From: Bdellovibrionales bacterium
GTDB taxonomy: Bacteria; Bdellovibrionota; Bdellovibrionia; Bdellovibrionales; UBA1609
Length of the DNA: 64,000 bases
Direction: 5' to 3'
Assembly (NCBI GenBank): GCA_965200875.1
Contig: OZ241456.1
Span: forward strand, 1,767,460-1,831,459
Below, one piece after another: positions 51,971 through 64,000 of this stretch. Both the position numbers and the translations under genes were made by a program. The first letter of the stretch is position 1. Every line of letters begins with the position of its first letter. The notes beneath the pieces are model-generated. The model had not been told where the DNA came from. It did not search any database and saw only the letters and a program-made list of their open reading frames with translations.

Positions 51971-52008
51971 ATGAAGCCCTGTTAAAAAATCCAATTTCAA
52001 TATTTTTT

Positions 52009-54612
52009 TTATAGCCTTTCAGACTGAAGCTTTAACACTCTCAAACAAGACTGCACGACAGAATCCGCATTGATTCCATGATACTGATAAATATCCCCTG
52101 GCCTGCCACATCGGGAGTGCTTTCTCACAGCCAATGATTCCTGATACACCCCCAGAACAGAACCAATGTTATCCAATAAACCCGGTTCACCGTCATGTAC
52201 GCTCACTATGGGGGCTTTTGTACACGCCAAACCCAAACCCTTTCCAAGATGCGTATAATCATTGTTATAAGCTAGGTTTCCCAACAATAAATCAGGGCTG
52301 GTGACTATAATAACATTAGCATAAATTCCCTGACTTAAAAGTGCTTTGGCCGCTGACAGAGCAGAAGTGGAAGGGGATCCCATAGAAAAAATATGCACTA
52401 CATTATCTTCCTCCCTGTAATCCGCATAACCGGTGTAATTTAACAAATAGTAAGCTCCTGCCAAAACCTCCTTTCGAATCCGTGAAAAAATTTCCGAGGT
52501 TGAGACAGAATCTATATGAGATTCCTCCTGAGCAAAAGGTAGAGAGTGATTTTTAGGAGTCAGCAAAATATCCGACTTGGTTTTAAATCTTTTTTGAGTT
52601 TTTAAACACTCAAGAAATTGCTTTTGATCCACACCTCTTGTCACTGCTCGGATCAACACTCCCGCTCTTCCCTCATTTTCTCCAGTAAAGTGTCTTTGAA
52701 GCGCGTCTTTGAAAATCCAATCCATTTCCTGCAGAAAAAAAGGCTCCCAAGTAATTTGATTGGGTATTTGAAAATCAGACTTCCAGCCATGCTGTGCCCC
52801 CTCTGGAGATAAAGTAACCCCAGACGGAGTACCACATAAAATAAAGCCGGCATTCCAATAGAGGGCATAAAAATACTGATCCAAAGCTCTTTTAATAAAA
52901 AAATCGTATATCGTCATTAAAGGGAGTACTGGCACACCCAGTATATCTTTCATTTTTCCGAAGGCTGTCATACAGGAGATGCTGTTGGCTTCAGCAATCT
53001 CAAAACGAATGAAACGATTTTGACTTTCCTGACGAGTTGTCAGATTTGGGCTTTTTTTATCTTCCAGTCCTTTTTTTACTTGTTCCTCCTTAATCCAAGA
53101 AGGGCCGAATACCTTGTTATTCATTGTAAACCCCAAGTTAGTAGAAGTGCCCACATCAGGGGACATGGAATAAAGCAAACGAGCTGGCTCTTTTAACATC
53201 TGCTCATCAGGCTTTAACGATTTTTCGTTGGCAATGCGGGAAAATTTAGCGGTTATCTGACCCAGGAACCACTGCGTATGAGGATAGCTCAAATTCTTAA
53301 AATCTAGGGATAAACTCTCCGGGCAGGAGGTGGAAAAAAGTTTTTTAAAACGTTTTTGATTTTCTTTTTTTATCCGGGCTTGAGAAAGGATTTCTTCATA
53401 AAGTTTTTCCCTTCTTTTTTTTAAAAAAAGTCCTTCCGGGGAATTTTCAGGAAAAAGCGGAAACTCTCCCTTACTTTCCACTCCTTCCCTTAATTTATCC
53501 AGCTCTTTTTTTGAAATTAAATAAGAATGATTGCCACTCCTGCCGGCCATTTCCAACCCCCAACCCTTAATGGTGTGGGCAATAATAAAACATGGCCGAG
53601 TTGGATCTTCTTTGCTTGCTTGCAGAGCGGAAATGAGGCTTGGAAAATCGTGCCCACCCAAATCTATAAAAGCAGATTTTACTTTCTCTGCCGGAATATT
53701 TTGCAAAAAAGCTTTTAATTTTTGATGTTTTGATAAAGTATTTTTCAAATCAGCCGGATCCTTATGAAATAAGGCCTGAAACTCATGATCTTTTAATTCC
53801 TTTTCCAGAAAAAATTGAAAATCCTTCCCTCCTGGCTCTTGGAATAGTCTTTTTCTGATAGAACCATGCCTTAACTGAATCACCCTCCATCCATTTACGG
53901 AAAGCGTTTTTTCAATTCTCAAGTCGTCAGAGCATTCCATGACATTATCATTAACGAGACGATGACCATCTAGGCTTTGGCGATTGTAATCCAAAATCCA
54001 AGTTAAATGACCTAATTCCCTCTCCGCCAGATCTGGAACAGCCTCCATAAGAGAACCTTCCCTAAACTCAGAGTCTCCCATTACCGCCCAAAAATGAGCA
54101 GGTGGAGTTTTGTACCCTTGAATATCAACCGCTTTATAAGCCAAACTCAGGTAACCCGCCACTACTGGAGGAATACCCACTGTTCCAGAAGGAAGAAAAT
54201 TATGATGATCTGGATCATATACGGAATGATAGGACTGAAAAGTAAATTCCTTGTTCCTAGGAAAAGCCCTTAACCCTCTCATGGCTTGTTCCGCAAACGC
54301 CGGAGAAAGAGGCTTCATATACTCATCCAACAACAAGCCCAACAAATAATTATAAGCATGATCTGTTGGGGAGGCATGAGGTTTGTTGGCGATATGATCA
54401 TATCCTGACTTAACAACAAGATGTAACGCGCCCATAATATGCAAGGCACTGGTGCTGGCAGAACAATGCCCTCCCACTTTAGGATCTCCTTTTTCCTGAT
54501 CTGTCCGGGAATTGGCTGTGTAGATCATCTGATTCAATATCAGATGCGCTCTGCGGGCAATAATATTTAAAATGTGTGATTCTTTCGGGTTCAAATTTTC
54601 CATAATAACCAT
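52009..54612 (-). CDS. aceE: Pyruvate dehydrogenase E1, AceE/transketolase-like
   Basis: KVGGH..S, KPHASP, GDSE..EG...NRQSLDG TPP motif, HTIKG, EGAQH. Confidence 0.85.
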   Translation of the reverse strand: MVIMENLNPKESHILNIIARRAHLILNQMIYTANSRTDQEKGDPKVGGHCSASTSALHIMGALHLVVKSGYDHIANKPHASPTDHAYNYLLGLLLDEYMKPLSPAFAEQAMRGLRAFPRNKEFTFQSYHSVYDPDHHNFLPSGTVGIPPVVAGYLSLAYKAVDIQGYKTPPAHFWAVMGDSEFREGSLMEAVPDLAERELGHLTWILDYNRQSLDGHRLVNDNVMECSDDLRIEKTLSVNGWRVIQLRHGSIRKRLFQEPGGKDFQFFLEKELKDHEFQALFHKDPADLKNTLSKHQKLKAFLQNIPAEKVKSAFIDLGGHDFPSLISALQASKEDPTRPCFIIAHTIKGWGLEMAGRSGNHSYLISKKELDKLREGVESKGEFPLFPENSPEGLFLKKRREKLYEEILSQARIKKENQKRFKKLFSTSCPESLSLDFKNLSYPHTQWFLGQITAKFSRIANEKSLKPDEQMLKEPARLLYSMSPDVGTSTNLGFTMNNKVFGPSWIKEEQVKKGLEDKKSPNLTTRQESQNRFIRFEIAEANSISCMTAFGKMKDILGVPVLPLMTIYDFFIKRALDQYFYALYWNAGFILCGTPSGVTLSPEGAQHGWKSDFQIPNQITWEPFFLQEMDWIFKDALQRHFTGENEGRAGVLIRAVTRGVDQKQFLECLKTQKRFKTKSDILLTPKNHSLPFAQEESHIDSVSTSEIFSRIRKEVLAGAYYLLNYTGYADYREEDNVVHIFSMGSPSTSALSAAKALLSQGIYANVIIVTSPDLLLGNLAYNNDYTHLGKGLGLACTKAPIVSVHDGEPGLLDNIGSVLGVYQESLAVRKHSRCGRPGDIYQYHGINADSVVQSCLRVLKLQSERL

Positions 54613-54664
54613 TCTTTGACTGAATTAAAATGTTGTCATGTTCATTTTAAGAGGTCAATATCCT

Positions 54665-55573
54665 CTATTCCTGCCGAGAAAACAGATTCTGAGAGAGAAA
54701 GGGGGCTATAGAAAGATGAAAAATTTGTTTAATATGAATATAACCATCCTCTTCAATCAGTCCTCCAGGGGGATTGGGAAAAGGTTCAGCCAATAAAAAC
54801 GCGTGAAGAGCGGCGGAGTCAATATCCTCCACTCCTGAGCTTTTTATCACTCTCATATCCTGCACTTCCCCCTCTGGGGAAAGATACACATAAAGACTGG
54901 TGGAAAAATACCTGCTCTTATGTTTATAAACAAACTTATTAAAAGAAAAGGCTTTTTGTAACAATTCGTTTTTAATATATTGTGTCCATCTCCAATAAAG
55001 CTGTTCTTTCATACGGGCAAAATACGAATAATAAACAAACTCCCTAGTATTCAACAAAGTGTGTGAACCAAACTCCACCCCCGGTAAAAAATCCATAGTT
55101 CGGCTTAATTCCTGCCGGTTTTTTTCCGGAAAAATGTTTTCTGACTCTATAGCCGATAAATCCACACTGAGTGGTGCCGTTATTTTATCTACCAAATCCG
55201 GAACTTGGGAGCTGACTTTCCGTTCAATGGATTTCGAAAAATGCTGATTTTTTACACGCAGATTTTGATCCGCCTGATGAAATAGTCCGTTTAACATGGC
55301 TTGTGTTTCCTTTTCTACTGTCTTATCCTTTTTACTCAGATAAGATGTTTGTGTTTTTGGAGGGATTTTATTAAACCTTTCCTGACTGACAATTTGCTGG
55401 TGAACAGGATATTCCACCAATATAAAATCATTATGGTTTTCTGTTTGCAAAACCGGCCTTTTGTATGGAAAAAAGGGGAATTTATACGAAACAAACAGAG
55501 GGAGATGAATCAGAAATGAACAAAAAAAAGCTAACAAAAACGGCCTTATTCGTTTTTTTTTATAATAAAACAA
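54665..55573 (-). CDS. TonB-family energy transducer
   Basis: N-terminal TM with SFLIH; C-terminal KSSG...D.AAL.A...PFPNPP. Confidence 0.85.
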   Translation of the reverse strand: MFYYKKKRIRPFLLAFFCSFLIHLPLFVSYKFPFFPYKRPVLQTENHNDFILVEYPVHQQIVSQERFNKIPPKTQTSYLSKKDKTVEKETQAMLNGLFHQADQNLRVKNQHFSKSIERKVSSQVPDLVDKITAPLSVDLSAIESENIFPEKNRQELSRTMDFLPGVEFGSHTLLNTREFVYYSYFARMKEQLYWRWTQYIKNELLQKAFSFNKFVYKHKSRYFSTSLYVYLSPEGEVQDMRVIKSSGVEDIDSAALHAFLLAEPFPNPPGGLIEEDGYIHIKQIFHLSIAPFLSQNLFSRQE

Positions 55574-55733
55574 TGAAAACCTCCGCTTTTTTTAATGACA
55601 ATAAAAAATCAATCTTAACACAGAAAATAAAGTTTTCATATATTGTCTGTAAATATTGTATCTTAATGGATTATAAGGTCTCTTTCAGGATTATAGCCTG
55701 AAGATTTATAACGCTTTTTGGAGCTTAAGACTT

Positions 55734-56459
55734 ATGGAGCTTGTATTTTATTCCGCCACGGATGTAGGTCTGGTCAGACATAACAACCAAGACAGCATTT
55801 TGGCAGATGGAAATAATCGGCTTTTTATGGTGGCTGATGGTATGGGAGGACATAAAGGAGGAGAAGTGGCTTCCTTATTGGCCGTTAAAACCCTATCAAA
55901 CAAGCTTACTGGAAAAACAAAAAAAAACAAATCTCTTTTTGAGGATATATACTCAGCCTGTGTGGAGGCCAACAAAGTAATCTATAATAAAAGTCAAAAA
56001 AAAGTTGAACTTAGAGGAATGGGCACCACTTTATGCCTGTTTTTAGTGAGACATGATGGTCTAGCTTACATAGCCAATATTGGAGATTCCAGGCTATATA
56101 TGGAGAAACAGGGAAAAATGTGGCTTTTAACAGAAGATCATAACTTCATAACCAACCAGATGAAAACCAGTTTCTTGTCTGGAGAAGATATGCCGGAACC
56201 CACTTCTGAAAACAGTGCTCTCACCAAAAGTGTAGGATTTTTTGCCTCCGTGGAACCCGATATTTTTGAAAGACAAGTGGAAAAAGGCGAAAAATACCTG
56301 ATTTGTTCTGATGGATTAAGCAGTTTTGTTCCTGATACAGAAATTAACGCTATTTTACAAAATCACTCTTTACAAAATGTCCCAAAAGAATGTATTAAAA
56401 GGGCCTTGGATGCAGGTGGAGATGATAATGTGTCCGTAATTGTTATTGAGGTTCAATAA
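55734..56459 (+). CDS. PP2C-type Ser/Thr phosphatase (Stp1-like)
   Basis: TDVGLVR.NNQD, VADGMGGH, GMGTT, NIGDSR, CSDGL, GGDDN. Confidence 0.95.
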   Translation: MELVFYSATDVGLVRHNNQDSILADGNNRLFMVADGMGGHKGGEVASLLAVKTLSNKLTGKTKKNKSLFEDIYSACVEANKVIYNKSQKKVELRGMGTTLCLFLVRHDGLAYIANIGDSRLYMEKQGKMWLLTEDHNFITNQMKTSFLSGEDMPEPTSENSALTKSVGFFASVEPDIFERQVEKGEKYLICSDGLSSFVPDTEINAILQNHSLQNVPKECIKRALDAGGDDNVSVIVIEVQ

Positions 56460-56532
56460 ATTTTTAAATAAAGTGATAATGATTTCCCGGATTTTTTGAG
56501 TAAACCGGGGGGAAAATAAAAGGCAAATCAAC

Positions 56533-57582
56533 ATGATTGGAAAAAAACTCACTATATTTGTCAGCTCCAAAACCAGCGGGCTGAAAGAAATTCATATTTC
56601 TGCGTTCCAAATTCGTTATGGACTCACGGGACTTGGAGTTTTAGGATTGCTTTTATGTGTGTTCGCAGTGGATTATTTCTTTGCTTTCTCTTCCCGGCTT
56701 GATTATCGAAAGTATCAGTCAGAAAATAAAAGCTTAAAAGCTCAACTTTCTCAAACTCAGCTCAAAATGAAGAAGCTTAATTCCCGTTTAAGACAAATTG
56801 AAGATTTTTCCTATAAAATCAAAGTGATTGCCGGACTGAAACAACCTACTTCCTCCCTTATGGCTATGGGGCCTCTTTCCGGATCCTCTTTCCCAGATTT
56901 ATCTTCTTCCAGTTCTGGATTTCCGGCAAAAAAATCAAATCGCGAGCTGGACGATAAAGCCTCTAGCTCCCAAACTTTATCCCCTCTGTCTGCTGAATCC
57001 CTAGTAATATACATGGATCATCTGGACAAAAAGTCCCGCTTGGTTCATCAAAATATCACCTTAATAATGGAGCAATTATATGAAAGAAAAGATATTATCA
57101 ACAGCACACCAAGTCTTTTGCCGGTTAAAGGATGGATTAGCTCCCATTTTGGTTATCGCCAATACCCTTTCACAGGAGAAGTATCTCTCCACGAAGGTAT
57201 GGATATTGCCGCTTTTCCAGGCACTCCGGTTTATGCTCCTGCCAATGGTGTTGTTGTATTTGCCGGATATAAAAAAGGTTATGGAAAAGTCATAGTAGTG
57301 GATCATGGCTATGAGCTTTCCACCCTTTATGGGCATTTATCTGATATAATGGTGTCTAGGTGGCAAAAAGTGGAGAGAAGACAAGTCATTGGTGCTATCG
57401 GCAATACTGGCAACTCTTCTGGTCCACATCTGCATTATGAAGTGCGTATTTCCAATGTTCCAGTGGACCCTGCCAATTACATTTTAAACCAAACCGGCTT
57501 TGAGCTTACTGAACATATAGACCACTTATCCTTAAAAGATAAACCAAAAAATACCCATCAACGAGATATAAACTCATTATAG
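56533..57582 (+). CDS. M23 family peptidoglycan endopeptidase
   Basis: TM + coiled coil; HEGMD (HxxxD), YGHL, SGPHLHYEV. Confidence 0.93.
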   Translation: MIGKKLTIFVSSKTSGLKEIHISAFQIRYGLTGLGVLGLLLCVFAVDYFFAFSSRLDYRKYQSENKSLKAQLSQTQLKMKKLNSRLRQIEDFSYKIKVIAGLKQPTSSLMAMGPLSGSSFPDLSSSSSGFPAKKSNRELDDKASSSQTLSPLSAESLVIYMDHLDKKSRLVHQNITLIMEQLYERKDIINSTPSLLPVKGWISSHFGYRQYPFTGEVSLHEGMDIAAFPGTPVYAPANGVVVFAGYKKGYGKVIVVDHGYELSTLYGHLSDIMVSRWQKVERRQVIGAIGNTGNSSGPHLHYEVRISNVPVDPANYILNQTGFELTEHIDHLSLKDKPKNTHQRDINSL

Positions 57583-57622
57583 AAAATAATAAAATCACAC
57601 AATCAAAAAACAGGAGGGTTTT

Positions 57623-58291
57623 ATGAATTTTGTTAAATTATTAAAAAAAGAGCTTAATCCTTATCATCTGCTCAAGCACCCTTTTTATCAAAAGTGGACA
57701 GAAGGAACATTACCTAAAAAGTGTTTGCAAAATTACGCTGTTCAATACTATCAACATGTATCGGCTTTTCCACGCTATATCAGTGCTTTGCATTCCTTGT
57801 GTGAAAATCCAAAAGATCGAAAAATCCTGCTCGAAAATTTAAATGACGAAGAAGGAGCTAAAGGTAAACCGCATCCTGATCTATGGATGTATTTTGCAGA
57901 AGGTTTGGGTTTAGACAAAGAAGCTGTGGAAAAAACCCCGGCCTGTAAAAACCTTCAGAAATTAATACAGAGCTTTTTTTTTCACTGCCGAAACTCTTAT
58001 GCGGAAGGTTTATCGGCTCTTTACAGTTACGAATACCAAGTACCGGAAGTGGCGGAAACAAAAATACAGGGATTAAAAAAACATTATAATATCACAGATG
58101 AAAAAACACTTTTGTTTTTTCTAGTTCATAAGTCTGCTGATATTGAACATAGAAAAGCCCTAGAGGAACTACTGGAGCACTTGCCTGAGAAGCAACAAAA
58201 ACCCGCACTGGATTCTGCCATAAATACAGCAAAAGCTCTTTGGAGTTTTCTAACAGAGATGGAATCTGTTCCTCAGGCGGTTACTACATAA
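57623..58291 (+). CDS. CADD/CT610-type heme-oxygenase-like metalloenzyme (putative pABA synthase)
   Basis: HPFYQKW, YYQHV, NLNDEEG...H, YEYQVPEVAETK, HKSADIEH metal-ligand pattern; folate-gene context. Confidence 0.88.
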   Translation: MNFVKLLKKELNPYHLLKHPFYQKWTEGTLPKKCLQNYAVQYYQHVSAFPRYISALHSLCENPKDRKILLENLNDEEGAKGKPHPDLWMYFAEGLGLDKEAVEKTPACKNLQKLIQSFFFHCRNSYAEGLSALYSYEYQVPEVAETKIQGLKKHYNITDEKTLLFFLVHKSADIEHRKALEELLEHLPEKQQKPALDSAINTAKALWSFLTEMESVPQAVTT

Positions 58292-58526
58292 CCTCTTGGT
58301 TCGGCGATGTTTTTCCGATTTTTTGTAAAGAAATCATTGCTGATTCACAAATAGAAAGCATCAAATTATAAGAAAACAAAGGTGTTATTGTAAAATCTTG
58401 CAATTTTTTCCCGAACCTTTTTAAAAAAATCAAGTGATAATAATGCCGTTATCATTTATTCAGGACCTATTTAGTCGACTTGATTAAGAAAACAAAGAGT
58501 CTATTTGACCGATCCAGAGCTTTCTC

Positions 58527-58570
58527 TTTTGTCAAATATTATTTGACAAAAACCCAAAACAGATTATTAT
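58527..58570 (+). promoter_or_regulatory. Sigma70-like promoter (TTGACA 58543-58548, TATTAT 58565-58570) overlapped by a 25-bp palindrome
   Basis: Perfect -35, 16-bp spacer, near-consensus -10; TTTTGTCAAATA-T-TATTTGACAAAA at 58527-58551. Confidence 0.65.
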
Positions 58571-58576
58571 ATTACA

Positions 58577-58653
58577 TATAAATACAAGGTTCCTCGTTCC
58601 TTATTCCTGAACTTAATTGTGGTTAAGGTTGGACACGAGGGCCGATTTTTTTT
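58577..58653 (+). ncRNA. Putative structured leader/small RNA ending in a U-tract upstream of the NYN gene
   Basis: CCTCGT 58592-58597 pairs with ACGAGG 58635-58640; TCC/GGA; inner CTTAAT/GTTAAG; T8 at 58646-58653. Confidence 0.5.
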
Positions 58654-58670
58654 GTTTGGTTCTTCATTCA

Positions 58671-59318
58671 ATGGAAAAAGTAGCTTTTATTGTTGATGGT
58701 GGGTTCTTTGTTAAAAAATACAAAGAGAAAAACAAGAAATATCCAACAGCAGATGATGTGGAAAAATATATTCAAAAAATCTTTGATTATATTAAAAAAA
58801 ATTCAACTGATAAAGTAGAAATTTACAGGGTATTTTATTATGACTGTCCACCTTTAAATAATCTTAGCAAATCTGAAATACGAAAAAACAAACCCACTAA
58901 CATAACAAATGAAAATATCAAGAATATATGTTCCTCTTTTACAAAAAACTATAAAACAATAAAAAAGTTTCATGATTCAATGAAGAGAAAAGACTTTTTT
59001 GCCTTGAGAATGGGACAACTAAAAATTCAAGGTTGGTGGCCAAATCAAACAAATCCAAATTATGCTAAACTAAAGATCAGACAAAAAGGTGTGGATATGC
59101 GAATAGGGTTGGATATTGCCAGTATTACAGCTAAAAAATTATGCACGAAGCTTGTTTTGATATCAGGAGATATAGATATGATTCCAGCTATGAAAACGGC
59201 CAGAAAAGAAGGTGTGCATGTGTATTGGCATAGCATAGATGACGGACGACATGGGTCCAATCTGGAATTAGCAACCCATTCAGATATAGTGTTAACAAAA
59301 AAACGATTGAAAATATAA
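58671..59318 (+). CDS. NYN (LabA/DUF88, PIN-like) ribonuclease-domain protein
   Basis: AFIVDGGF, YRVFYYDC.P, RQKGVDMRIGLDI, LISGDIDMIPAMKTARKEG, LATHSD; start refined to ATG 58671. Confidence 0.92.
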   Translation: MEKVAFIVDGGFFVKKYKEKNKKYPTADDVEKYIQKIFDYIKKNSTDKVEIYRVFYYDCPPLNNLSKSEIRKNKPTNITNENIKNICSSFTKNYKTIKKFHDSMKRKDFFALRMGQLKIQGWWPNQTNPNYAKLKIRQKGVDMRIGLDIASITAKKLCTKLVLISGDIDMIPAMKTARKEGVHVYWHSIDDGRHGSNLELATHSDIVLTKKRLKI

Positions 59319-59454
59319 TGCTATTCTTTCATTTTTAGGATGCAGGTATACCTTCAGGAGATTCAAGTACTGGAAAAAGCAAATTTAAAAATGTGACAAA
59401 TCGTGTTTTTTGCTGAAAAATAAAAATCAATTTTGACCGGGAGGTGAATTTTAA

Positions 59455-59919
59455 ATGTTCTCCAAATCTTTTCCCCGTAAAAAGCGACGCACTCGTTCTC
59501 TGTTAAAAAGACTTGCAGGATACTATAAATTACCTCCTGCTAACATTAAGGTTTTGGAAATAAAGTCTCTTGTACTACCTGTACATATCGGACGAACAAG
59601 AGAAGAACGTTTAAACACTCAGGATGTCTCTTTTAATATTTTTCTTGTTCTTCCTGCCAGACTAAAAGGTGAAAAAACTGATGAATTCAAAGATTCTGTT
59701 TGCTATTTCAAAATATGCGAGCGAATCAGGCAGTTAAGCTCCCAAAACAAGTTTTTTCTGATTGAAAAACTGGCTTTTGAAGTTTTTACCGATTTAAAAA
59801 CCGAATTGCCTTTTTTTACCAAAATTCAAGTAAGTGTTCACAAACTAAATCCCCCCGTTCCCAACTTGAAAGGTGGTGTTTCATACACTTATGGAGATAA
59901 TATGACGGGAATAAAGTAA
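59455..59919 (+). CDS. folB: Dihydroneopterin aldolase
   Basis: HIGRTREER..QDV, SVCY, LIEKLA, VHKLNPP; basic N-terminal extension. Confidence 0.85.
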   Translation: MFSKSFPRKKRRTRSLLKRLAGYYKLPPANIKVLEIKSLVLPVHIGRTREERLNTQDVSFNIFLVLPARLKGEKTDEFKDSVCYFKICERIRQLSSQNKFFLIEKLAFEVFTDLKTELPFFTKIQVSVHKLNPPVPNLKGGVSYTYGDNMTGIK

Positions 59920-60096
59920 GTGCGTACCTTTCTTTTCTTTACCAGATATAATTTGACTAATTAATAGTTTTAAACGACACTACTTATAGCTTTTGAAAAA
60001 GCAGGTGTTGCGAAGTATGTCATTTCCACCATAAAAAAGAAAAAAATACAAAGCTGGAAATTTTTAAACCACAATCTAAAAAAAAAGGAGAATCAA

Positions 60097-62025
60097 ATGA
60101 AAAAGCTAGAATGTTTTATATTGTTTTTATTTTGGGGGTTATCCTCTCTAACTTTTGTCAGTCATGCAGAATCCAATGAATCTGTAACAGAAAAATCACC
60201 AGAAACAAAAAAGTTGGTCATTAAATCTTTAAATGAAACTCCGGCAGATGCAAGTCGCCACATTGCTGTCACTATTATTACAAAAGAAGATATCTCAAAG
60301 TGTGTCGGTTGTGATTTCACCGATGTTTTGGAAAGAGCCGGTGTGCAGGTTCGCCGTTTTCATTCTCAGTTCCACCAGTCCTCTGACACAGACAAAGCTT
60401 ATGTTTCCCTTAGGGGTATGTCCGACGCCCAAATTGCCTTGGAGGTAGATGGCGTTAGGCAACAAGACAATATGATAGGTGAAGCTCTATGGACTTTTAT
60501 TCCCCTTAACCATATTGCACGCATTGAAGTAGTCCGTGGACCTCAGTCAGCTTATGTAGGGGACTCTGCTATGGGTGGGGTGATTCGGATTTTCACAAAA
60601 AAAGCGGACTGTCCACCAGAAGAGTTTTGCGCACTGGCTCAAGCAGATATTTCCAATAAATCCACCACGGGAAATACAGCGTATGTAAGCGCGAACACTC
60701 GTACCGGGCAGTCTGGTGTTCGTTTGGGAGCACAGCTGGATAAAAGCTCTGATCCAGAAAAAACAGACGATTATAAAGAGCAGGCGTTTACTTTTAACTT
60801 TGATCACAGATCCACAAATGACAAGTGGTTGATAGAAGGCAGTTCTGTTTTTTATAACAGCCGTAATGAAGGAGAACCTGCTCCTTTTGTGGAAAAAGGA
60901 GATTCAAAGCTGGCAAGCCTTGGAACCACTTATTACATATCCCCTGATTTGCTTTTTAAAAACCTTCTAGGATATAACGAAGAACAACAATTTTATAACG
61001 ATGACCTCACAAAATACACCAGTGGGAGGCTTTCCATAAAACTTTTTGGAGAATATCACTTTCAGCTGGAAAGAGTGGGGAATTACATTTTAACGACTGG
61101 CCTAGAGAAAAAAAGAGAAAGAATCGATTCTGATCCTGATAATGTGTATGATCATAAAAAAAGAGATACAAGAGCTTTATTTGCCAATGTAAGAGGAGAA
61201 AATGGACCTTTGGTTTATCAAGTGGCTTTGCGGGCTGATGATCTGTCCGGGGACACAAAGAATAAAGTTTTTACATGGGATGGAGATGCCTCCTATTATA
61301 TCGCTCGGCTGGAATCCCACGATGTTTTTTTAACAGGGGGAGCGGGCACGGGTTTTCGAGCACCTGGATTTGACGAACAATACCTCAATAGTTTTTCTGA
61401 ATCTGATGAAGAGGAAGTATGGGGTTCTTTAACTGAGGCAAATCCTGATTTGACTTTGGAAAAGTCTGCCACTTATGAGATAGGAGTGCGAATAGAAAAA
61501 GCAAAACACTACTTTCTGGATATAACAGGTTTTGAAACAAATCTGAAAAACGCTGTCTTTTTTGGAGAACAAGAAGAAGCACTCACTGATGAAGATCATC
61601 TTATTTATATAACACCCTTAAAACAAGGCAAGGACACCAAAATACAGGGTGTGGAGTTTCAGGCCAGATGGGCACTGAATCCCTGGACCGGACGCATCGG
61701 ATACACTTACACAAAACCTGCGGATGGTGTGGAAAACTTCAGAGGGATGAATCCTGTCAAGCACTTAGGATTTATAGGGATGGATTATACTCTAAACCCC
61801 AACACCTCCTTTGGTGCAGAAATGTTACACAGAGGGGAAAGGGCTGATCAATCCGTGTCTGGAGATAAAGTGAATTTATTCGGTGTGTATGCCAGTTATA
61901 ATTTGTATGAGAATGCCAATATCAAACTGGCTGTGGAAAATCTGACAAATGAAAAATATGACCTGTATAATTTCACGACAGGACAAGGACGTACCTTATG
62001 GTTCAATGTCACACTGAAATATTAA
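60097..62025 (+). CDS. TonB-dependent outer-membrane receptor (BtuB-like architecture)
   Basis: Signal peptide; plug motifs VSLRG, VDGV, IARIEVVRGPQSAYVGDSAMGGVIRIFT; GFRAP, NPDL..E, ENLTNEKY, GRT; C-terminal Y. Confidence 0.92.
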   Translation: MKKLECFILFLFWGLSSLTFVSHAESNESVTEKSPETKKLVIKSLNETPADASRHIAVTIITKEDISKCVGCDFTDVLERAGVQVRRFHSQFHQSSDTDKAYVSLRGMSDAQIALEVDGVRQQDNMIGEALWTFIPLNHIARIEVVRGPQSAYVGDSAMGGVIRIFTKKADCPPEEFCALAQADISNKSTTGNTAYVSANTRTGQSGVRLGAQLDKSSDPEKTDDYKEQAFTFNFDHRSTNDKWLIEGSSVFYNSRNEGEPAPFVEKGDSKLASLGTTYYISPDLLFKNLLGYNEEQQFYNDDLTKYTSGRLSIKLFGEYHFQLERVGNYILTTGLEKKRERIDSDPDNVYDHKKRDTRALFANVRGENGPLVYQVALRADDLSGDTKNKVFTWDGDASYYIARLESHDVFLTGGAGTGFRAPGFDEQYLNSFSESDEEEVWGSLTEANPDLTLEKSATYEIGVRIEKAKHYFLDITGFETNLKNAVFFGEQEEALTDEDHLIYITPLKQGKDTKIQGVEFQARWALNPWTGRIGYTYTKPADGVENFRGMNPVKHLGFIGMDYTLNPNTSFGAEMLHRGERADQSVSGDKVNLFGVYASYNLYENANIKLAVENLTNEKYDLYNFTTGQGRTLWFNVTLKY

Positions 62026-62046
62026 ACCTTTTTAACAAAGCACAAA

Positions 62047-63294
62047 GTGACAACTTATATCGGCCTAGGATCCAATGTTGGAAATCGTCTGCAAAACCTA
62101 GAGCAGGCTGTAAAAGAAATGGCAAACGCGGGCCTTTCCATTTTAAAAGTCTCACCGGTTTATGAAAATCCTGCTCTTCTTCCACCAAAAGTGCCAGAAG
62201 AATGGAATCATCTTTTTTTAAATGCCACAGCGCAGATCCAATGCGATAAAAAAACTCCGGAACAATTATTATCTGTTTTAAAAACTATTGAAAAAAAACT
62301 TGGGCGCGGAAAAAATCCAAAGTGGGCCCCTAGAACGATTGACTTAGACATTTTACTATTTGACAAAAAAATCATTAATACTCCTCAGTTAAAAGTGCCA
62401 CATCCTGAATTAAAAAAAAGAAACTTCGTAATAACCCCTTTAAAAGAAATGCAAGCAAGCAAAGCCAAAGCCCTTGAGCTTTTTCGAAGTCTGAAAACAA
62501 AACTTCCAACATGGATGTATATTGTCAATATCACTCCTGATTCCTTTTCCGATGGAGGCCAGATAAACTTAAGCAGTTTTGAATCTATTTTAAAGCAAGT
62601 GTCGGAGCAATATATCCATATAGTGGATTTAGGAGCAGAGTCCACTCGTCCAGGTGCTATTCCTGTTTCTCCGGCGGAAGAGTGGCAAAGACTTCTGCCT
62701 TACATTGAAAAGTTTAAGGATTTTTACGAAAACAAAATTTTTCGCCCTAAATTAAGTATAGATACAAGGCATGCTAAAACTGCAAAAAAAGCCCTTGATA
62801 AAGGAGTAGTGGATATTATTAACGATGTCAGCGGGCTTACCAAAGAAATGTTGGAGCTACTTAAAAAACAAGAAGTGGAGTATGTTCTCACGCATAGTGT
62901 AACTCTGCCGGCAAACAGGAAAAAAACCCTGCCTTTAGATAAAGACCCTTTGGAGGAGATAAAAAAATGGTTGGATAAAAAAATAAATATTCTGGAAAGT
63001 CATAACATTTCCTTGGATCGCGTGATTTTTGATCCCGGCATTGGTTTTGGAAAAACAGCGGGTCAGTCCTTGGAAATTTTAAAGAGAATTAAAGAGTTTC
63101 ACTGTTTTCCTTTGAGAATTATGGTGGGGCATTCTAGAAAATCCTTTATGAAAAGTTTTTCTCCTGATAACCCAGGAAAAAGAGATGCGGAAAGTGCGGG
63201 TATATCTCTTTCTTTAATGGAAAAAGGAGTGGATATTTTGCGTGTGCATAGAGCTGACTTTCACGCACGCGTGGCACGCGGATTTTTGAGCTAG
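62047..63294 (+). CDS. folKP: Bifunctional HPPK / dihydropteroate synthase (FolK-FolP fusion)
   Basis: YIGLGSN, FLN, WAPRTIDLDIL, PH (FolK); NITPDSFSDGG, GAESTRPG, SIDT, NDVSG, DPGIGFGK, GHSRKS, RVH (FolP). Confidence 0.95.
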   Translation: MTTYIGLGSNVGNRLQNLEQAVKEMANAGLSILKVSPVYENPALLPPKVPEEWNHLFLNATAQIQCDKKTPEQLLSVLKTIEKKLGRGKNPKWAPRTIDLDILLFDKKIINTPQLKVPHPELKKRNFVITPLKEMQASKAKALELFRSLKTKLPTWMYIVNITPDSFSDGGQINLSSFESILKQVSEQYIHIVDLGAESTRPGAIPVSPAEEWQRLLPYIEKFKDFYENKIFRPKLSIDTRHAKTAKKALDKGVVDIINDVSGLTKEMLELLKKQEVEYVLTHSVTLPANRKKTLPLDKDPLEEIKKWLDKKINILESHNISLDRVIFDPGIGFGKTAGQSLEILKRIKEFHCFPLRIMVGHSRKSFMKSFSPDNPGKRDAESAGISLSLMEKGVDILRVHRADFHARVARGFLS

Positions 63295-63373
63295 CGGATC
63301 CCCTTATAACTGATGTTCCCGGCCTGTGATGATTACCAAAAAAGGATACTTAAAAAATTAAAAGGAGATATTT

Positions 63374-64000
63374 ATGCAAATTGAAGCTATTCACACAGAA
63401 GTTTTTTCTCAAGGTATGGAGCTTACAAATTTTATTCTGAAACACGCCAGAGACAAAATAAAAGAAAACTCTGTATTAGCTGTTACCTCTAAAATTGTCA
63501 GTGTAGCGGAAGGTCGCGTTGTCCAAAAAGAAAAAATCAGCAAAGAAGACTTGATTAAAAAAGAATGCGAACATTACTTGGGAAAAATTGGATACGGTTG
63601 TCATTTGACCATACATCACGGATTGTTAGTTCCTTCTGCGGGTATTGATGAATCCAACTCCTTTAACCATGAGTATATTTTGTACCCAAAAGATCCTTTT
63701 TTATCTGCAAAAAAAATAAGGACTGCTCTTAAACAAAAACTTTCTTTAAAAAATTTTGCAGTCATAATAACGGACTCACGCACATTCCCTTTAAGAAAAG
63801 GAGTAACAGGGGTGGCCCTAGCCTATAGTGGTTTAAAAGCCGTTAAAAGCCTGATAGGAAAAAAAGATCTATTTGGTCGCCCTTTGCGAATGACTACCAT
63901 AAACATAATAGATGCTTTAGCCAGTGCTGTGGTTTTACTAATGGGAGAGGGGGCTGAACAATGTCCTTTGGCTTTGATAAAAAAAGCTCCTTTGGAATTT
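63374..64000 (+). CDS. CofE/CT611-like gamma-glutamyl ligase (alternative folylpolyglutamate synthase), runs off the window; not in the ORF track
   Basis: AGGAG RBS, ATG 63374: MQIEAIHTE...VLAVTSKIVSVAEGR...PSAGIDESNS...VIITDSRTFPLRKGVTGVALAYSG...DLFGRPL...DALA...MGEGAE. Confidence 0.85.
   Translation, partial: MQIEAIHTEVFSQGMELTNFILKHARDKIKENSVLAVTSKIVSVAEGRVVQKEKISKEDLIKKECEHYLGKIGYGCHLTIHHGLLVPSAGIDESNSFNHEYILYPKDPFLSAKKIRTALKQKLSLKNFAVIITDSRTFPLRKGVTGVALAYSGLKAVKSLIGKKDLFGRPLRMTTINIIDALASAVVLLMGEGAEQCPLALIKKAPLEF

Follow-up and report, generated by a model that had tools for sequence, protein, structure and literature searches.

Organization of the locus

The window, a stretch of 64 000 nucleotides from a Bdellovibrionales genome, carries a compact cassette on its forward strand. 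A sigma70-type promoter at 58543–58570 (TTGACA −35 box, 58543–58548; TATTAT −10 box, 58565–58570; 16-nt spacer) scores 11/12 against the sigma70 consensus, and transcription is predicted to start at about 58577. It is followed by a predicted structured RNA of approximately 77 nt (58577–58653; class E below), comprising an AU-rich 5′ leader, a three-helix rod and a U8 tail, and then by a solitary NYN gene (LabA/DUF88, PF01936; phrog_5783) at 58671–59318, predicted to encode an RNase of 215 aa. The ATG at 58671 sits 17 nt past the T8 tract (58646–58653). The GC content of the cassette is 29–31%, against 34–47% in the remaining 300-nt bins of 52000–64000. A preliminary description of this DNA had proposed an AT-rich unit made up of a sigma70-like promoter, a GC-stemmed RNA ending in T8 (here the hairpin at 58588–58643) and a NYN gene with intact catalytic aspartates, with no protein antitoxin; each of these elements was recovered.

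Promoter-like sites were not in excess in the region overall (8, compared with 10.7 in shuffled sequences). In the 11 homologous copies of the RNA, a site scoring at least 9/12 lay within 30 nt of the RNA in 8; among 2041 random positions the share was 6.7%. A perfect inverted repeat of 12 bp around a 1-nt centre (58527–58551) overlaps the −35 box of the window promoter; it is a possible operator, and blastn showed no conservation of it in relatives.

The cassette lies in a genome-specific insertion (approximately 58292–59547, both ends approximate) between a gene for a CADD-family protein (TIGR04305; 57623–58291) and the conserved part of folB (59455–59919). In eight of nine other CADD-bearing genomes of the genus, folB begins 23–180 nt after CADD and NYN is absent, which identifies the cassette as an insertion; in the ninth, CADD and folB lie apart. 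No convincing terminal or target-site repeats were found at the insertion. Since the cassette is missing between CADD and folB in these eight genomes, a functional link to folate was ruled out, and the location in the folate cluster is incidental. CADD is present in 10/15 genomes of the genus. CADD, folB and a fused folK-folP gene (62047–63294) together form a folate/pABA gene set of Chlamydia-like type, here within a Bdellovibrionales genome, and the cluster also includes a TonB-dependent receptor gene (60097–62025) that separates folB from folK-folP. Where the NYN gene ends, another promoter-like site scoring 11/12 (59292–59319) is directed at folB and could restore its expression after the insertion. 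The spacer behind CADD contains a hairpin (58424–58461), and over 38 nt the spacer matches the region upstream of CADD in the related genome G084 at 89%. No CRISPR genes were seen beside the window cassette, which lies outside any defence island.

The NYN protein

The 215-aa product matched Pfam NYN with an E-value of 1e-6 and 29.7 bits, against a curated cut-off of 24.2. No match was obtained in NCBIfam, a sequence search of the PDB returned 0 matches, and an Atlas look-up gave NYN clusters only. The AlphaFold2 model (pLDDT 92.9) was superposed on 2qip with Z 15.7 and rmsd 2.8 over 149 aligned residues and on the NYN domain of MARF1 with Z 15.5 and rmsd 2.8 over 145, the next row having Z 9.6. 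Across 49 homologs, D142, D167 and D169 never vary and D9 almost never does; from the fold and these residues the protein is a putative metal-dependent RNase. A longer ORF starting at TTG 58617 was rejected because the homologs begin at the equivalent of ATG 58671. One search returned 2991 relatives.

NYN.COG1432/LabA-DUF88 proteins (2qip) have the same fold and catalytic aspartates (PMC5499597). Unlike them, the window subfamily has an insertion of approximately 70 residues and invariant YDCP-P and RxG motifs, and its invariant non-catalytic residues R53, Y57, P61, R113 and G115 surround the insertion. The consulted part of PMC5499597 lists NYN.COG1432 as of unknown function and mentions no RNA partner.

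No small ORF of at least 60 aa that might encode an antitoxin was seen adjoining the window NYN gene, and no neighbour of at least 90 aa recurred as a partner in 112 homologous loci, the largest clusters (6 and 5 loci) being integrases or recombinases. This absence of a co-transcribed protein antitoxin sets the window NYN apart from type II systems with VapBC-like PIN toxins.

Structure and covariation of the upstream RNA

The rod consists of an outer helix P1 (58588–58597 with 58635–58643; 9 bp) that continues into P2 (58598–58600 with 58631–58633; 3 bp), a conserved unpaired UUAUU bulge (58601–58605) and an inner helix P3 (58606–58612 with 58622–58628; 7 bp) closed by a 9-nt loop (58613–58621). 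The T8 tract after P1 is predicted to form an intrinsic terminator and the 3′ end of the RNA, and termination at the U-tract would be expected. The window hairpin, with a structured insert for its ‘loop’, was for that reason missed by an automated terminator scan. Taken singly, the hairpin is only modestly stable for its composition (58588–58643; −21 kcal/mol, z −2.3 to −2.6). The inner CTTAAT/GTTAAG hairpin of the preliminary description did not survive: it was seen in the partial-transcript fold alone, and covariation prefers the register of P3, with its 9-nt loop, the 3-bp middle helix and the UUAUU bulge. A pseudoknot between leader and loop, tried in a single register, was unsupported (66.7% paired, one pair broken in 8/10), and no tandem repeats were found in 58290–58700.

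A class E model was built from an alignment of seven copies. It matched 11 places in 9 of the 109 genomes of the family, ten of them strongly (six training copies and four new); a weak match in G090 (E 0.01), with no NYN behind it, was excluded from the counts. The set of 11 copies used for covariation includes one from a different family (G371). Over these copies 93.2% of cells are paired and 8 of the 19 pairs show double changes. P1 and P2 account for 12 pairs (93.9% paired, both sides changed in 6) and P3 for 7 (92% paired), one of which is C-G in six copies and U-A in five. The covariation score was reached by 0/500 shuffles, a count that is not a probability because the class E copies are related, and slid controls were 34–52% paired. 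The P3 loop is 8–10 nt long, a T run of at least five is present in 8 of the 11 copies, and the letters of the unpaired leader and bulge are invariant. The covariation analysis of homologous upstream regions that the preliminary description had called for thus returned a conserved, covarying structure nearly confined to NYN loci and their remnants, an outcome that favours the description.

A generic terminator or attenuator that throttles or insulates whatever accessory gene lies downstream, with no specific link to NYN, would also present a hairpin with a U-tail and a modest single-sequence z. We regard it as the least probable of the readings and very unlikely: the element is preceded by a promoter-like site of its own, its conserved unpaired letters would exceed what a plain terminator requires, and 8 of the 10 strong class E matches in the 109 genomes fall on NYN genes or what remains of them, a local duplicate accounting for one of the remaining two.

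The element might instead be a cis-acting autoregulatory 5′ leader, in which NYN binds or cuts the leader of its own mRNA and so brings about termination, hiding of the ribosome site or decay. A mildly harmful RNase would thereby be kept at a limited level, and the released RNA would have no inhibitory role. Such a leader predicts covariation and the absence of a protein partner equally well. In three class E copies, moreover, the ATG follows the U-tract and P1 carries GAGG in its 3′ strand, 11–13 nt upstream, so that a Shine–Dalgarno site could be sequestered. Folding speaks against a switch: with P1 penalized the best alternative reached −23 kcal/mol against −27 for the rod, an early 5′ hairpin reached only −1.8, and an antiterminator was rejected for lack of a competitive alternative fold of the class E RNA. 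We consider the leader somewhat unlikely, although the strongest of the competing readings and clearly more probable than a generic terminator; further evidence on both is given below.

Rfam 15 was searched with the window and gave a best score of 21.5 bits, far under the gathering threshold; over the element, the only same-strand hit was a 13.7-bit chance match. In 20 homologous loci there were seven Rfam matches, none of them on the upstream element. Scanning viral contigs for the class E pattern gave six matches; none had the P1 helix, and they were taken as chance.

Upstream elements of homologous genes

Homologous loci (160) were fetched from genomes and viral contigs, as the best 80 of 584 and the best 80 of 581 confirmed candidates, and 124 were retained after removal of near-duplicates. 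In this sample of best-ranked candidates, an upstream element was recognized by eye in 115/124 loci, and the loci were distributed over class A (54), B (26), C (16), D (9), E (6), other (4) and none (9).

Class A consists of an outer stem, an internal loop, an inner hairpin and a U-tail, and covaries at 12/12 pairs in 38 sequences. In 51 held-out sources, 13 of the 14 matches to the class A model lay immediately upstream of NYN. In whole genomes the model gave a single strong match per genome, at NYN, in 4/5 genomes, which again argues against a generic terminator. Example folds of classes B and D had z-scores of −6.1 and −5.5. Class C is an array of one or two units (an AUCC word, a 5-bp stem and a UAGG loop), in most cases with a separate hairpin after it. 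Twenty units were found in the 16 NYN loci, against six chance matches in 659 kb elsewhere, and the units vary in the stem alone. In one class C locus (L025:120–185) two units lie antisense to the NYN gene, about 165–195 nt upstream of it.

In most classes the element is single-copy and abuts the gene, as would suit a cis-acting leader. Repeated units with a separate hairpin in class C speak against one, and a leader would not account for the class C units on the opposite strand in L025.

The classes could not be merged into one RNA family. Cross-searches between class models were negative, the class A model missing the window RNA and the class E model matching no other class; it is thus by position and architecture, rather than by demonstrated homology, that the classes belong together. 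A universal AUCC word was also rejected: unpaired AU(C/A)(C/A) was weakly enriched (ATCC 63 vs 37 and TTCC 41 vs 41, of 111). On a quick protein tree (107 of 125 rows, two of them, L042 and L081, mis-extracted and long) RNA class changed 13 times, against a shuffled mean of 54.4; this clustering is no proof of co-evolution because kin share labels, and the autoregulatory leader predicts it equally.

The motif QKG[V/I/T/A]D was altered in 9/9 element-less loci, which represent two lineages, against 3/110 scored element-bearing loci. A Lysobacterales subclade without upstream element (L042, L068, L073, L081, L083, L084, L089 and L097) has QTQVD in place of QKGVD and is located behind housekeeping genes; it is possibly a domesticated form. 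A homolog on a Campylobacter conjugative plasmid (L229:1880–1990) is preceded by a degenerate class A-like stretch and a separate hairpin, with no match to the class A model. One viral contig carries a DUF3800-VIII RNA (RF03075; L176:1813–1878) some 1.1 kb ahead of a class A NYN cassette.

Mobility and loss of the cassette

The NYN protein was matched in 13 of the 109 family genomes, at different sites and in a patchy distribution, and homologs occurred in 65 phage records and 167 plasmid records. In the lambdoid phage ev099 a homolog with its own promoter-like site, a hairpin (z −4.0) and a U-tail lies between cI and N, the slot of rexAB in lambda. Searched against E. coli, the ev099 homolog matched 275/5426 genomes, with most of the query covered in 74; one partial copy that was checked is interrupted by an IS3-family element. 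PADLOC matched 7 of 111 adjacent genes at E ≤ 1e-15, approximately five of them defence-like, so clustering in defence islands is weak.

Gene and RNA differ in their retention. Only 4 of the 11 class E copies have an intact gene; in the others the gene is truncated (three), carries a stop or a frameshift, or has left no remnant. For class A in the same family, nine strong and two further copies were accompanied by five intact, two broken and four absent genes; 17 of 26 class A matches had been excluded (15 short and terminator-like, two unrelated). Taken together, within the order 9/9 intact genes retain an RNA, and at 13/22 RNA copies the gene is broken or absent; those gene fragments that stand without RNA are missing the N-terminal catalytic strand. 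This asymmetry would fit loss of the toxin first. It can be explained in part by the smaller target of the RNA (70 vs 650 nt), and assembly errors may underlie some stops and frameshifts. Orphan RNAs now stand ahead of other genes in G092 and G081 (class A) and G082 (class E), as a generic terminator would allow; that orphans survive with near-intact structure weighs against an autoregulatory leader.

Two orphan class A RNAs in two genomes (L278:1501–1568 and L285:1501–1568) are followed by the same non-NYN gene pair, the first ORF of which begins with a KKKIICLANSKK motif; either NYN was deleted there or the leader was put to new use. In one genome (L279 and L301; G084:C1:1820410–1821776), a NYN gene and a tmRNA gene are enclosed by two class A copies that lie 1.3 kb from each other, a layout that suggests integration at tmRNA.

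A dedicated, covarying RNA element is thus fixed before a solitary, mobile and often-lost NYN gene. Judged from its sequence, the cassette is a mobile two-part unit of this RNA and the putative NYN RNase.

Comparison with known systems

Known systems were compared on the basis of parts of the cited sources. Type III toxin–antitoxin loci are defined in PMC3401426, in the part consulted, as repeats, then a terminator, then a toxin. The window cassette resembles ToxIN, CptIN and TenpIN (PMC3401426) in having a promoter, a non-coding RNA, a terminator and one predicted RNase gene without a protein antitoxin. It further resembles them in its mobility and patchy distribution and, through its class C homologs, in a repeat array with a separate hairpin. 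It differs in the fold of the toxin, which is NYN/PIN-like (Pfam NYN only; best structure matches NYN), and in its RNA, a single rod that doubles as the predicted terminator. With no tandem repeats, and no support for the one leader–loop pseudoknot tried, the window RNA departs from the canonical type III antitoxin; among the homologs, class C alone has a tandem array, of one or two units. Of the type III layout suggested in the preliminary description, the promoter, RNA, predicted terminator and lone gene therefore stand, and a toxin of the ToxN, CptN or TenpN families and tandem repeats are both absent.

AbiF is likewise a prophage-borne solitary nuclease under a structured upstream RNA (bioRxiv 10.1101/2025.04.15.648962). 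It is related to Cas13/HEPN, whereas the window protein is NYN, and neither an Abi_2/HEPN domain nor an Rfam abiF RNA was found in the window, nor an abiF RNA in 20 homologous loci. According to the same partly consulted source, RCd22, the AbiF RNA of C. difficile, acts in cis and also in trans; by this precedent the autoregulatory leader and a trans-acting RNA may both hold.

Two further solitary candidates have no protein antitoxin. DS-3 (PMC13092281) is a PIN-like RNase that defends and requires its catalytic residues; it is a 340-aa hypothetical protein and was compared by description alone. HEC-09 (bioRxiv 10.1101/2024.01.29.577857) is a PIN/NYN candidate; PADLOC matches of the window protein were weak, HEC-09 having E 0.011. 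HEC-09 gave no defence when tested in E. coli (bioRxiv 10.1101/2024.01.29.577857), nor did NYND, another NYN gene, possibly of a different subfamily. In the parts of PMC13092281 and bioRxiv 10.1101/2024.01.29.577857 consulted, no RNA partner is mentioned for DS-3 or HEC-09. The DefensePredictor supplement, as far as consulted, lists WP_116651624.1 as a predicted defence gene with a log-odds of 8.0; it was assigned to the window NYN family by eye from the listed sequence, and the rows consulted name no RNA partner.

A stand-alone bacterial NYN with biochemical data is the CRISPR-associated protein of Bacteroides fragilis, an Mn2+-dependent ssRNase (bioRxiv 10.1101/2024.04.08.588522). It differs from the window protein in lying within a type III CRISPR operon and in its proposed trimming of crRNA. 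Its proposed role as a crRNA trimmer lends some support to another reading, in which the RNA is a working product, guide or cofactor that NYN matures or uses as a ribonucleoprotein, the RNA directing or activating cleavage. The invariant non-catalytic residues around the insertion would also be compatible with this. The RNAs have no variable spacer-like segment, their loops are short and conserved, and variation confined to the stems of class C units points the same way, making a guide or cofactor improbable, if slightly less so than a generic terminator.

Interpretation

The reading that we prefer, at a probability of about 0.5, is that the cassette acts as a type III-like RNA-antitoxin system, that its toxin fold is new and that it is probably directed against phage. 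The promoter would drive the structured RNA of approximately 77 nt. Most transcripts would stop at the U-tail and release it, giving a high ratio of RNA to protein, and the NYN RNase would be made from rare read-through. The RNA would bind and inhibit the RNase, with contacts through the unpaired bulge and the loop. Phage infection, by halting host transcription, would deplete the unstable RNA, and the freed RNase would abort the infection. The RNA-controlled NYN RNase of the preliminary description is supported in part, by the conserved, covarying upstream structure, by the lack of a protein partner and by one RNA class of repeats plus terminator; the rest of that proposal is predicted.

Extended to the homologs, the RNA-antitoxin reading would describe a large new class built on the NYN/PIN fold across many phyla, prophages and plasmids, in which each clade has its cognate RNA and the freed RNase aborts infection. 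Cognate RNAs would range from single rods fused to the terminator to ToxI-like repeat arrays. This wider proposal is held more tentatively, at a little less than even odds.

To our knowledge, RNA-antitoxin systems comprise few toxin folds, namely ToxN-like and AbiF, and PIN/NYN toxins occur only with protein antitoxins or with none; AbiF has been linked to the origin of Cas13. If the RNA-antitoxin reading is true, NYN would be a common third toxin fold among such systems and the first RNA-inhibited PIN-fold toxin, the element classes would provide a natural series for the rise of repeat-array antitoxins out of terminator leaders, and a large branch of COG1432, so far listed as ‘function unknown’, would gain a function. 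For the study of protein–RNA specificity, five or more RNA architectures are available. Such NYN genes may be mis-scored in defence screens when they are cloned without the upstream 100 nt or with just a portion of it.

The preliminary description knew of no account of this pairing, and none of a NYN RNase with a dedicated RNA was found in the literature covered, which took in three RNA-motif surveys in their main texts, without mention of NYN/LabA. The pairing of RNase and RNA is real and widespread, and apparently undescribed. The Fremin supplements, in the part consulted, list the anonymous candidates HMP2_4496, HMP2_4524 and DNAVirus_9008 near NYN/LabA genes, and these may overlap one of the RNA classes described here.
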